NCBI RefSeq assembly: GCF_056746865.1
Contig: NZ_CM163382.1
Strand: one strand, 5' to 3'
Length of the DNA: 64,000 nt
Position 1 is the stretch's first letter; each line of letters opens with the position of its first letter. The translations under genes and the position numbers were made by a program. The notes beneath the pieces were generated by a model. The model did not search any database, was not told the DNA's origin, and worked only from the letters and a program-made list of their open reading frames with translations. Shown here piece after piece: positions 6,435-43,740 of this stretch.

Positions 6435-7667
6435 ATGCAAAATAAATTAGCTTCCGGTGCCAGGCTTGGACGTCAGGCGTTACTTTTCCCTCTCTGTCTG
6501 GTGCTGTACGAATTTTCAACCTATATCGGCAACGATATGATTCAACCCGGTATGTTGGCCGTGGTGGAACAATATCAGGCGGGCATTGATTGGGTTCCTA
6601 CTTCGATGACCGCATATCTGGCGGGCGGGATGTTTTTACAATGGCTCCTGGGGCCGCTGTCGGATCGTATTGGTCGCCGTCCGGTGATGCTGGCGGGGGT
6701 GGTGTGGTTTATCATCACCTGTCTGGCAATATTACTGGCGCAAAACATTGAACAATTCACTCTGTTGCGCTTCTTGCAGGGCATAAGCCTCTGTTTCATT
6801 GGCGCTGTGGGATACGCCGCAATTCAGGAATCCTTCGAAGAGGCGGTTTGTATCAAGATCACCGCGCTGATGGCGAACGTGGCGCTGATTGCTCCACTAC
6901 TTGGCCCGCTGGTGGGCGCGGCGTGGATCCATGTGCTGCCCTGGGAAGGGATGTTTGTCTTGTTTGCCGCATTGGCAGCGATCTCCTTTTTCGGTCTGCA
7001 ACGAGCCATGCCTGAAACCGCCACGCGTATAGGCGAGAAACTGTCGCTGAAAGAACTCGGTCGTGACTATAAGCTGGTGCTGAAGAACGGTCGCTTTGTT
7101 GCGGGGGCGCTGGCGCTGGGATTCGTTAGTTTGCCGTTGCTGGCGTGGATCGCCCAGTCGCCGATTATCATCATTACCGGCGAGCAGTTAAGCAGCTATG
7201 AATATGGTTTGCTGCAAGTGCCTATTTTCGGGGCGTTAATTGCGGGTAACTTGCTGTTAGCGCGTCTGACCTCGCGCCGCACCGTACGTTCGCTGATTAT
7301 TATGGGCGGCTGGCCGATTATGATTGGTCTGTTGGTCGCTGCTGCGGCAACGGTTATCTCATCGCATGCGTATTTATGGATGGCCGCCGGGTTAAGTCTT
7401 TATGCTTTCGGTATTGGTCTGGCGAATGCGGGACTGGTGCGATTAACTCTGTTTGCCAGCGATATGAGTAAAGGTACGGTTTCTGCGGCGATGGGGATGC
7501 TGCAAATGCTGATCTTTACCGTCGGTATTGAAATCAGCAAACATGCCTGGCTGAACGGGGGCAACGGACTGTTTAATCTCTTCAACCTTGTCAACGGAAT
7601 TTTGTGGCTGTTGCTGATGGTTATCTTTTTAAAAGATAAACAGATGGGAAATTCGCACGAAGGATAA
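6435..7667 (+). CDS. mdfA: Multidrug efflux MFS transporter MdfA/Cmr (410 aa)
   Basis: ORF 6405-7667, start at [27 protein letters not shown]; 12-TM MFS profile. Confidence 0.9.
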
Positions 7668-8076: not shown

Positions 8077-8892
8077 TTATTGGTTAAATGGCGCTTCGTG
8101 TTTAAGCACTTTATCGATCACATCCAGTACGCCTTCACGGTTATTGGAGCCTGCCCGGTATTTTGCCGCTGCGACGACCGCGCTGCCGGCATTTTCCATT
8201 GCAAAACTAAAGCCTGCCTGACGCAGCATCTCAATATCGTTACCGCCATCGCCAAAGACCACCACTTCGCTGTCGTCTATTCCCCATAATTTCTGCAGTT
8301 GGCGAAGGCCATTGGCTTTATGTACGCCGGGGATAATCAGATCGATACTGCCGTTGCCGGTGTGGACCGGCACCATAATATCGCCGATGGCCTCATGTAA
8401 TGCTTTTTGTACTTGTGGAATCAGTTCATCGGAAAGATTCAGACCAAACTTAAAGAAGATATCTTCTAAGTTGTCAAAGTTATCGACGTATTCCAGACGG
8501 TGATAATACATTTCCGCCACCGTTTTCATGGCATCGTCATATTTTTTGAGGGTATAGGCGCTATTTTTTCCGCAGGCAATAATTTCCACTTCCGGGCGCG
8601 TCAGCAAATGTTCCACGACAGTAGCAAACGCATCCTTCGACAGCTCGCCATTAAAAACATCTTTGCCTTCGCTCACTACCCAGCCGCCGTTTTCAGCCAC
8701 AAAGGCTATTTCATTAGCAATTTCCGGAAAGAAAGAGATCAACTGATAATATTGATTCCCGCTGGCGACCACAAAGCGAATGCCTTGTGCTTTCATTTGC
8801 TGATACTGAGCCATAAACCGCTCACGGTTATAGGTTTTTTGATCGCTTAAGAAAGTACCATCCATGTCTACCGCAATTAATTTAATGCTCAT
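8077..8892 (-). CDS. ybjI: HAD-family FMN / sugar phosphatase YbjI (271 aa)
   Basis: ORF translation [15 protein letters not shown] (HAD motif I DxDGT). Confidence 0.85.
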   Translation of the reverse strand: MSIKLIAVDMDGTFLSDQKTYNRERFMAQYQQMKAQGIRFVVASGNQYYQLISFFPEIANEIAFVAENGGWVVSEGKDVFNGELSKDAFATVVEHLLTRPEVEIIACGKNSAYTLKKYDDAMKTVAEMYYHRLEYVDNFDNLEDIFFKFGLNLSDELIPQVQKALHEAIGDIMVPVHTGNGSIDLIIPGVHKANGLRQLQKLWGIDDSEVVVFGDGGNDIEMLRQAGFSFAMENAGSAVVAAAKYRAGSNNREGVLDVIDKVLKHEAPFNQ

Positions 8893-10100
8893 CAACTATT
8901 CTCCATCGCCGTCTGCGTTTTGGTATCGGGTTTGGCGACGGCTTTCGCGACAATAGCCGCGAGAATAACCAGCGCCAGTACAACCAGCATTGCACTACGT
9001 AATCCATAATGTTCGCCGAGATAGCCCAGCAGTGGCGGCCCGACGAGGAAAGCCAGATAACCGGTCGTTGCTACCACACTGACGCGGGTTGGTGCATCGG
9101 GGCCGGTATCGCTGGCGGCAGAAATGGTCAGCGGGAAGCCCAGCGAGGCACCCAGTCCCCAAAGTACAACAGACACCCCAGCGACCCAGGCGCTATCGAC
9201 AAAAATAATCAGCCCAATACCCAACGCTCCCATTAGTGCACTGGCCCGAACCACGGCAACGCGACTGTAACGGTCGATGAACCAACCGCCGGTAAAGCGT
9301 CCAACAGTCATCCCCAGGGTAAAACCGGCATAAATCAGCGAGCCGGAAGTAGGGCTAAAACCGTGACCGTCAACCATTAATAAGGGTAACCAGTCGTTGG
9401 CAGAACCTTCGGCAAAGGCCATCGCCAGCACCACAACACCAATCAGCAGCAACTGGATATCGCGATAAAAAGGTACGCCTTTTTCACCATGCTGGGTGCC
9501 ATCGGCAGCATTTTTGCCCGTACCGTCAGGGATTGCCTGAATGGCGATATAAATAGGCGCGATGCCTACCAGCGCCGCCAATAAAATGTGCACCGTTGCC
9601 GGAACGCCAAAGGCCGTCAGTGCCATCCCGACACCAGCGCCTGCCAGCGTGCCCAGGCTATAAAAACCGTGCATCATCGGCAAAACCGTCTTATTCATTT
9701 CTCGCTCAACGGCAGCACCTTCAACGTTTATCGCCACTTCCGCAGAACCAAAACTTGCCCCAAAGACGCCGAGGCCAACCGCGAAGAGCAGGGGCGATGT
9801 CAGCCAGAGTGCCAGACTTAGTATCATCATCCCGATCAATGCGCAGGACATCGTGACCAGGATGACATTACGCGTCCCAAAGCGTTTCACTAACCACGCC
9901 GAGCAGAGAATACCGCTCATTGAACCGATCGACAGACCAAAGAGGACTCCGCCCATTTCAGCGATCGAAACAGAAAGAATATCGCGGATAGCAGGCGTAC
10001 GGGTTGCCCAGGACGCCATTAACAGGCCCGGCAAAAAGAAGAACATAAACAGCGCCCAGGTTCGGCGTTTCAATGCATTACGTGAAGAATTTACGGTCAT
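8892..10100 (-). CDS. ybjJ: MFS transporter YbjJ (402 aa)
   Basis: ORF translation, multi-TM; position divergent from rcdA. Confidence 0.8.
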
Positions 10101-10143
10101 AGATCACGTCAAAATAAGAAGAGGGAAGACAACATTAGCAAGG

Positions 10144-10163
10144 TTGTGTACATTTGTACACAA
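10144..10163. promoter_or_regulatory. Near-perfect 20-bp palindrome TTGTGTACA-TT-TGTACACAA in the ybjJ–rcdA divergent promoter region; candidate TetR-family (RcdA) operator
   Basis: 9-bp arms pair perfectly around a 2-nt centre; lies 20 bp upstream of the rcdA start codon. Confidence 0.6.
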
Positions 10164-10183
10164 TTGCAGAGAGAGGAAATGAC

Positions 10184-10720
10184 ATGCGTCGCGCTAACGA
10201 TCCGCAACGGCGAGAAAAAATTATCCAGGCCACGCTGGAGGCGGTGAAACTTTACGGAATACATGCTGTTACGCACCGCAAAATTGCTACCCTTGCCGGG
10301 GTACCGTTGGGGTCGATGACCTACTATTTTTCAGGAATTGATGAGTTGTTGCTGGAGGCGTTCAGCAGTTTTACTGAGATCATGTCCCGGCAATATCAGG
10401 CATTTTTTAGCGATGTTAGTGATGCTCAAGGCGCATGCCAGGCTATCACCGATATGATCTACAGCTCACAGGTTGCAACGCCGGATAACATGGAGCTGAT
10501 GTACCAGCTCTACGCGCTGGCTAGCCGAAAACCGCTATTAAAAACGGTAATGCAAAACTGGATGCAGCGCAGTCAGCAAACGCTCGAACAATGGTTTGAA
10601 CCCGGAACCGCCCGCGCGCTTGATGCGTTTATTGAGGGGATGACGCTGCATTTTGTCACCGACCGTAAGCCGCTATCGCGCGAGGAGATTTTGAGGATGG
10701 TTGAGAGGGTTGCAGGGTAG
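10184..10720 (+). CDS. rcdA: TetR-family transcriptional regulator RcdA (178 aa)
   Basis: ORF 10154-10720, start at [21 protein letters not shown]; TetR-type helix-turn-helix. Confidence 0.85.
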
Positions 10721-10739
10721 TAGATAAATTATAGGCAAC

Positions 10740-10818
10740 AAAAAACCCACCAACCTTGAACCGAAATGGCGGGGTTGATGGGCTCCACAAAATGGGGACA
10801 TCAAAGAAAAGCAGTGGC
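10740..10818 (-). ncRNA. rybB: Sigma-E-dependent small RNA RybB
   Basis: Minus-strand sequence GCCACTGCTTTTCTTTGATGTCCCCATTTTGTGGAGCCCATCAACCCCGCCATTTCGGTTCAAGGTTGGTGGGTTTTTT matches RybB as I recall it; terminal hairpin plus U-tract; sits in the rcdA–ybjL intergenic region as in K-12. Confidence 0.85.
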
Positions 10819-43514: not shown

Positions 43515-43740
43515 GCACCGGTGTTGGTGGCGTCAAAATCGCCGAGGCGTTCCCTGAAGGCCGGGGCAGCCCACATGGATGTGGGCTGAGGGCGCGTTTT
43601 ACAGGGATGTTACCTCGCGCCCGACCCGGTAGCCGCAAGGGATAAGTCGAGGGCACCGCGCAGCGGCGATTTTGTTCGCCAGAGCCCGGGGGTGCAGGGG
43701 GCGGCGGCGATTGGCCGCCCCCTGCGCGCTCCCTGCGCCA
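43515..43740. repeat. GC-rich intergenic element with nested inverted repeats (outer 11-bp arms at 43534-43544 and 43664-43674; inner hairpins at 43567-43588, 43591-43623 and 43694-43725)
   Basis: Local GC far above the flanks; several perfect stems of 7-12 bp; no ORF; not a canonical REP sequence. Confidence 0.45.

Follow-up and report, generated by a model that had tools for sequence, protein, structure and literature searches.

It is well established that TetR of Tn10 acts as a dimer on a palindromic operator (tetO) located in the short spacer between its own gene and that of a divergently transcribed MFS efflux pump, and that the tetR and tetA promoters overlap, with the operator lying over core promoter elements. 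Tn10 tet contains two 19-bp operators (O1 and O2) and shows clear autorepression and a high-affinity inducer. CecR (YbiH) is another TetR-family regulator encoded beside the transporter genes that it controls, in this case ybhGFSR (PMC12998191, PMC5934670). Its strongest SELEX site is found at its own locus, and it is listed as a single-target regulator.

RcdA (YbjK) resembles both systems: its gene is divergent from that of an MFS transporter, ybjJ, and its strongest site also lies at its own locus. RcdA targets were identified by genomic SELEX (Shimada et al. 2012, MicrobiologyOpen, PMC3535384). In that study, the RcdA-box unit consensus TTGTnnACA was derived from DNase-I footprints and 'TTGTGTACAttTGTACACAA' was printed as the putative palindromic RcdA box. 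The ybjJ-rcdA region was the strongest gel-shift probe and, with little RcdA, showed one clear region protected from DNase I, the spacer being footprinted at the lowest protein concentrations used; 15 or 22 SELEX clones are given for the RcdA-box region (PMC3535384). Unlike CecR, RcdA has been assigned some 30-40 additional targets of low affinity, among them csgD, sulA, bluF/ycgZ, ydeI and asr. It spreads cooperatively on AT-rich target DNA (PMC3535384 among others). Tn10 TetR is not known to do so.

In an rcdA mutant, ybjJI is expressed and ybjJ promoter activity is increased, as observed by Northern analysis and with lacZ fusions, indicating that RcdA represses ybjJ-ybjI. The activity of rcdA-lacZ falls in the same mutant, which the authors read as positive autogenous control (PMC3535384). 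Selection for ionic-liquid tolerance in independent adaptive-evolution studies yielded rcdA alleles carrying L55S, IS insertions, amber codons or a deletion; rcdA is described there as regulating the MFS pump ybjJ, which is induced 3.2-3.7-fold by [C2mim]Cl. TMAO, in complex with which RcdA has been described (Kd ~7 mM), is the only structurally documented ligand. A paper on metformin and RcdA contains no binding-site information.

The ybjJ-rcdA spacer contains a perfect palindrome identical to the published RcdA box

The window analysed here is a 64,000-nt stretch of contig NZ_CM163382.1 (assembly GCF_056746865.1), and window positions are obtained by subtracting 877,239 from NC_000913.3 positions. 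The features discussed are collected in Table 1. The rcdA product carries the TetR_N (PF00440, 31.6 bits) and TetR_C_31 (PF17940, 38.7 bits) domains, both above cut-off, and a PDB sequence search matched it to the RcdA entries 5x5i, 7acl, 7acm and 7aco (E about 1e-115). No RcdA-DNA co-structure was found by this search, in which the RcdA entries are known by molecule name only. The ybjJ product matches MFS_1 at 117 bits.

Table 1. Coordinates of genes, operator, conserved sequences, transcription starts and candidate promoter elements at the ybjJ-rcdA locus (window positions).
Feature	Position	Strand	Basis
ybjI (b0844), co-transcribed with ybjJ	8077..8892	-	ybjJI Northern; operon b0845|b0844
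ybjJ (b0845), 402-aa MFS transporter, repressed target	8892..10100	-	ORF, MFS_1
ybjJ-ybjI(-ybjH) transcription start	about 10122..10125	-	SMRT-Cappable-seq
Candidate rcdA -35, AAGACA (GACA nearly invariant)	10126..10131	+	Putative, from scan, conservation and fit to the start
36-bp conserved block, GACAACAyTAGCAAGnnTGTGTACATTTGTACAyAA	10128..10163	.	Columns of 81 sequences
Candidate ybjJ extended -10, TGcTAATGT	10132..10140	-	Putative, from scan and conservation
20-bp palindrome, published primary RcdA operator	10144..10163	.	Sequence and PMC3535384
Core GTGTACATTTGTACA, the part actually under constraint	10146..10160	.	Columns of 81 sequences
Candidate rcdA -10, TACATT, inside the palindrome and including its central TT	10149..10154	+	Putative, from scan and conservation
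Candidate ybjJ -35, TGTACA, the core of the right palindrome arm	10155..10160	-	Putative, from scan, conservation and fit to the start
rcdA transcription start, last two palindrome bases	10162..10163	+	Cappable-seq
rcdA (ybjK, b0846), 178-aa TetR-family regulator	10184..10720	+	ORF, domains, PDB matches

A first-pass annotation of this stretch had pointed to a near-perfect palindrome in front of rcdA and had proposed it as the likely RcdA box. Direct reading of the sequence gives TTGTGTACATTTGTACACAA, that is TTGTGTACA-TT-TGTACACAA, and a repeat finder returned two 9-nt arms (10144-10152 and 10155-10163) that are 100% complementary and separated by a 2-nt gap. The palindrome is real and its arms are in fact perfect. 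Between its end and the rcdA ATG (10184) lie 20 nt, and 43 nt separate its start from the ATG of the divergent ybjJ (10100, minus strand); the intergenic spacer measures 83 bp. It is identical to MG1655 887383-887402, as is the whole spacer to its MG1655 counterpart, and the stretch annotated as rcdA/ybjJ is present in 5,422 of the 5,426 complete E. coli genomes. The site shows the dyad symmetry over ~15-20 bp of a TetR-family operator.

The exact palindrome is unique in the window when up to 3 mismatches are allowed (0.01 matches expected). Perfect 9+9 palindromes with a spacer of at most 4 nt are less exceptional: three distinct ones occur in the 64-kb window, and an overlap-inclusive count gave 4 as compared to ~1.9 per Markov-simulated window. 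Symmetry alone proves nothing, and the significance of this palindrome comes from its position, its conservation and published experiments. Apart from this site, perfect palindromes with arms of 9 nt or longer occur in the window only at 7621-7639 and 43567-43588; they read TTATCTTTT-T-AAAAGATAA and CAGCCCACATGGATGTGGGCTG and may correspond to terminator stems.

Comparison with the literature showed that the window palindrome is identical to the TTGTGTACAttTGTACACAA form printed for the ybjJ-rcdA spacer. Three matches to TTGTnnACA are present inside it, namely TTGTGTACA on each strand and TTGTACACA, so that the published consensus is related to the site. The RcdA box and the window site are therefore the same sequence, at the same gene pair and for the same regulator, with no difference in identity. 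The RcdA-box proposal is borne out by the SELEX, gel-shift and DNase-I data that accompany this palindrome (PMC3535384); it is supported but already published, hence not new. A real, experimentally established operator had been correctly recognised from the sequence alone. What we add is the cross-species invariance of the core, the 36-bp block, the placement of the site relative to transcription starts and a tension over autoregulation.

The description of the site in PMC3535384 is not consistent throughout. The SELEX section assigns 22 clones and the palindrome to tfaX-appY, whereas the legend of Figure 1 assigns them to ybjJ-rcdA, and a later passage spells the palindrome 'TTGTGACAtttGTaCACAA', which is garbled. 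We searched the tfaX-appY spacer of MG1655: the palindrome is absent and the best match has 6 mismatches.

We also considered that the palindrome might belong to another regulator such as LexA, CRP or another global factor, with RcdA binding being incidental. TGT/ACA-rich dyads do resemble several enterobacterial operators, and the sequence near sulA that comes closest to the palindrome resembles an SOS box. However, the site contains GTG-N10-CAC and not the CTG-N10-CAG of LexA, and its TGTGT/ACACA pentamers are 8 nt apart rather than 6 as for CRP. Moreover, RcdA footprints this spacer at the lowest concentrations and shifts it better than any other probe (PMC3535384), and each of the 80 species in the conservation set described below has the site together with rcdA. 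A different owner of the site is accordingly very improbable.

The centre of the palindrome is invariant and lies in a 36-bp conserved block

One genome was taken per species, giving rcdA loci from 80 other Enterobacteriaceae species of the genera Escherichia, Citrobacter, Salmonella, Klebsiella, Raoultella, Enterobacter, Kluyvera, Kosakonia, Lelliottia and others; with the window, 81 sequences were compared by column statistics, together with a MAFFT alignment of 15 genera. RcdA protein identity across the 80 loci is 67-98%, and ybjJ is divergent from rcdA in 79 of the 80 species. The sequence TGTACATTTGTACA was detected exactly once upstream of rcdA in every locus.

The part of the palindrome actually under constraint is its core (Table 1). 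The 14 bases at 10147-10160 are invariant in all 81 sequences, the non-symmetric central TT included, and 99% retain G10146. Variation is seen at the three outermost positions of each arm, where symmetry is lost (for example AAG...TAA and TTG...TCC). The core is embedded in a 36-bp block which reaches 16 bp to the left of the palindrome. Most positions of this block are at least 94% identical in the 81 sequences, variation being seen at 10135, 10138, 10142-10145, 10161 and 10163, and on either side of it conservation is only 30-60%.

These data bear on a further reading, in which the inverted repeat would act as RNA, in the form of a 5'-UTR hairpin or a terminator, or would be a functionless chance palindrome. 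A perfect 9+9 inverted repeat could fold, and the simulations above indicate that such repeats are expected by chance at this scale. However, no terminator was called at the palindrome, no T-run follows it, its stem is AT/GT-rich, and it lies upstream of both mapped transcripts with the exception of its last 1-2 bases. The pattern seen here, an invariant loop with uncompensated changes at the outer stem positions, is the opposite of the way RNA stems evolve, and invariance over the 81 sequences excludes chance. This reading can hardly be maintained and is, of all those considered, the least credible.

Variation within E. coli was also observed. A 30-nt query centred on the site differs in 1,037 of 5,422 E. 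coli genomes (about 19%; 90-95% identity band). In SK1144 and Trh52, the two variants examined, the changes are G10143A and T10144C, which shorten the left arm by one base and leave the core intact.

Nearly all loci keep the operator 42-46 nt from the ybjJ ATG. Its spacing from the rcdA start is 16-22 nt in most species and ranges from 16 to 117 nt overall. The operator is locked to ybjJ and not to rcdA. Distances of 50-117 nt between operator and rcdA were found in Salmonella, the K. oxytoca group, K. indica, Raoultella and two more loci, in which ybjJ is still 44-45 nt away. The implication is that these species have a longer rcdA leader or use another start codon.

Mapped transcription starts place the operator over two divergent promoters

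Published start-site data were transferred to the window. In the Cappable-seq data of Ettwiller et al. 2016, a plus-strand start is listed at U00096.2:886624 with a score of 2.858 and an enrichment of 4.5 (PMC4782308 supplement). A 777-nt offset between genome versions brings it to window position 10162. Calibration on 48 start sites of the window, based on a purine at +1 and a -10 signal, showed that a shift of +1 fits best, giving 10163. The rcdA start is a weak signal (2.86) from a single dataset, with an uncertainty of 1 nt due to the coordinate convention. On the opposite strand, the SMRT-Cappable-seq data of Yan et al. 2018 list the operons b0845|b0844 and b0845|b0844|b0843 as starting at NC_000913.3:887361 reverse, which corresponds to 10122 (PMC6131387 supplement); the coordinate convention of this dataset leaves an uncertainty of about +0 to +3 nt.

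Candidate promoter elements that fit these starts were found for both genes (Table 1). The putative rcdA -10 ends 7-8 nt upstream of the Cappable-seq start and is separated from the putative -35 by a 17-nt spacer. For ybjJ, the TG, the TA and the final T of the putative extended -10 are invariant across species, and a spacer of 17 nt also separates it from the putative -35. These hexamers score ~6 in a crude model, and such scores, which occur ~5 times per kb and per strand, are not significant alone. Because they are so common, the promoter assignment rests on conservation together with the mapped starts.

On our reading, the 36-bp block holds two fully overlapping divergent promoters with the candidate hexamers given in Table 1. 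Each -35 would lie at the start of the other promoter, the starts are ~40 bp apart, and the edges of the block coincide with the outer edges of the two promoters. With the mapped starts, the operator overlaps the core promoters that it controls, as tetO does in Tn10; the hexamers involved are putative.

Two other candidates were rejected. The minus-strand sequence TTCACC-17-GATAAT (10248-10220) was ranked top by the promoter scan and by the crude sigma-70 model. This strongest sigma-70-like match of the region (9/12) lies inside and antisense to the rcdA coding sequence. As a ybjJ promoter it would give a start near 10213, and none was found there among the start sites listed, the only listed ybjJ start being at ~10122. 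CACAAT (10159-10164) was rejected as the rcdA -10: 72% of species have an A in place of its final T, and its position is over or downstream of the mapped start.

RcdA bound to the operator would cover core elements of both promoters

Taken together, the palindrome is very probably a single high-affinity RcdA operator seated on the overlapping ybjJ and rcdA promoters, with candidate hexamers, a presumed stoichiometry and a predicted sign of autoregulation. In the mechanism that we propose, one RcdA dimer, presumably one per site, would recognise the invariant core GTGTACATTTGTACA. Bound RcdA would extend over ybjJ promoter positions from about -20 to -40, the likely -35 among them, and would thereby shut off the MFS pump operon, whose repression by RcdA is shown (PMC3535384). 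On the rcdA promoter it would occupy about -19 to +1, with the likely -10 and the start, and should limit rcdA expression as in Tn10 tetR-tetA. Loss of RcdA derepresses ybjJ, and its release by a ligand presumably does the same; the TMAO complex and the induction of ybjJ by [C2mim]Cl are no more than hints of such a ligand.

The first-pass annotation had described the position of the palindrome as textbook for TetR-family autoregulation. The position and the existence of autogenous control agree with this view; the published sign is positive and not that of classical autorepression (PMC3535384). RcdA also differs from Tn10 TetR in having one 20-bp palindrome and in its ligand, TMAO, for which the Kd is in the millimolar range. 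Autorepression of rcdA is predicted by the geometry of the locus, and this prediction contradicts the single published reporter assay.

One explanation would be that RcdA genuinely stimulates rcdA, either by blocking the -35 of a stronger ybjJ promoter and thus freeing the template (promoter competition) or by a MerR-like remodelling of the spacer DNA. The opposite responses of the rcdA-lacZ fusion and of the ybjJ promoter in the rcdA mutant (PMC3535384) point in this direction, as does the MG1655 annotation of RcdA as a 'dual regulator'. Moreover, mutual exclusion of polymerase at the two promoters is plausible from the spacing of their starts and from the placement of each -35 at the other start. 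On the other hand, the operator covers the only plausible rcdA -10, so that bound protein should exclude polymerase from this promoter too, and the evidence for stimulation consists of one reporter comparison. The dyad centre lies only 30.5 bp from the rcdA ATG, a geometry that rules out direct class I or class II activation and leaves no activator position. Genuine stimulation is therefore conceivable but rather doubtful.

Returning to the operator that covers both promoters, we tentatively suggest, with no great confidence, that it works as a directional switch, sending polymerase to the rcdA promoter when the ybjJ -35 is blocked: positive autoregulation would either be real but indirect, through promoter competition in which the derepressed ybjJ promoter may win over that of rcdA in the mutant, or be an artefact, with RcdA acting as a plain autorepressor. 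If so, either outcome would correct or explain the 'dual regulator' annotation at the rcdA-ybjJ locus. The promoter map exposes this contradiction over the sign of RcdA autoregulation. Its practical value is otherwise small: the 36-bp block and the mapped starts provide a precise map of the ybjJ-rcdA promoters and operator, useful for engineering ionic-liquid tolerance or an RcdA-based switch.

The palindrome marks essentially the rcdA-ybjJ locus only

It had also been proposed that the palindrome could serve as a seed for finding other RcdA targets, and in this respect its value turned out to be weak. The 30-nt site-centred BLAST query was found at one place per genome in 5,422 E. coli genomes. 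No exact TTGTnnACA was detected in seven other published regions (appY, sulA, ompA-sulA, csgD-csgB, bluF-ycgZ, ydeI-ydeJ and ynfM-asr), and the best match to the full palindrome in these seven target regions has 6-9 mismatches out of 18. Half-sites with one mismatch were found 4 times in their 3.5 kb, as compared to about 0.7 expected from background. In the window, 11 TTGTnnACA half-sites were counted versus 8.3 expected, which is chance level. The seven regions are mostly AT-rich, with a GC content of 0.28-0.45. Given this AT-richness and the cooperative spreading of RcdA on its target DNA, the palindrome marks essentially one locus. The other reported RcdA targets lack exact boxes, and a genome search based on the palindrome will not find them.

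The sulA region of MG1655 comes closest to the RcdA palindrome, as a partial match, at TACTGTATGGATGTACAGTA, whose CTGT-N8-ACAG form resembles the sulA SOS (LexA) box. The region also has an RcdA half-site with one mismatch, TTATGTACA.

Other elements of the window were observed in the course of this analysis. The small RNA RybB (Rfam RF00110, 104 bits) is encoded at 10737-10815 on the minus strand, 17 nt past the rcdA stop and convergent with rcdA; SMRT-Cappable-seq lists read-through operons b0847|b4417 (ybjL + rybB). A small orphan CRISPR array with three CRISPR-DR4 type repeats at 60-nt spacing is located at 54238-54385 (plus strand), and a tRNA gene is found at 54848-54932 (minus strand), about 460 nt beyond these repeats.
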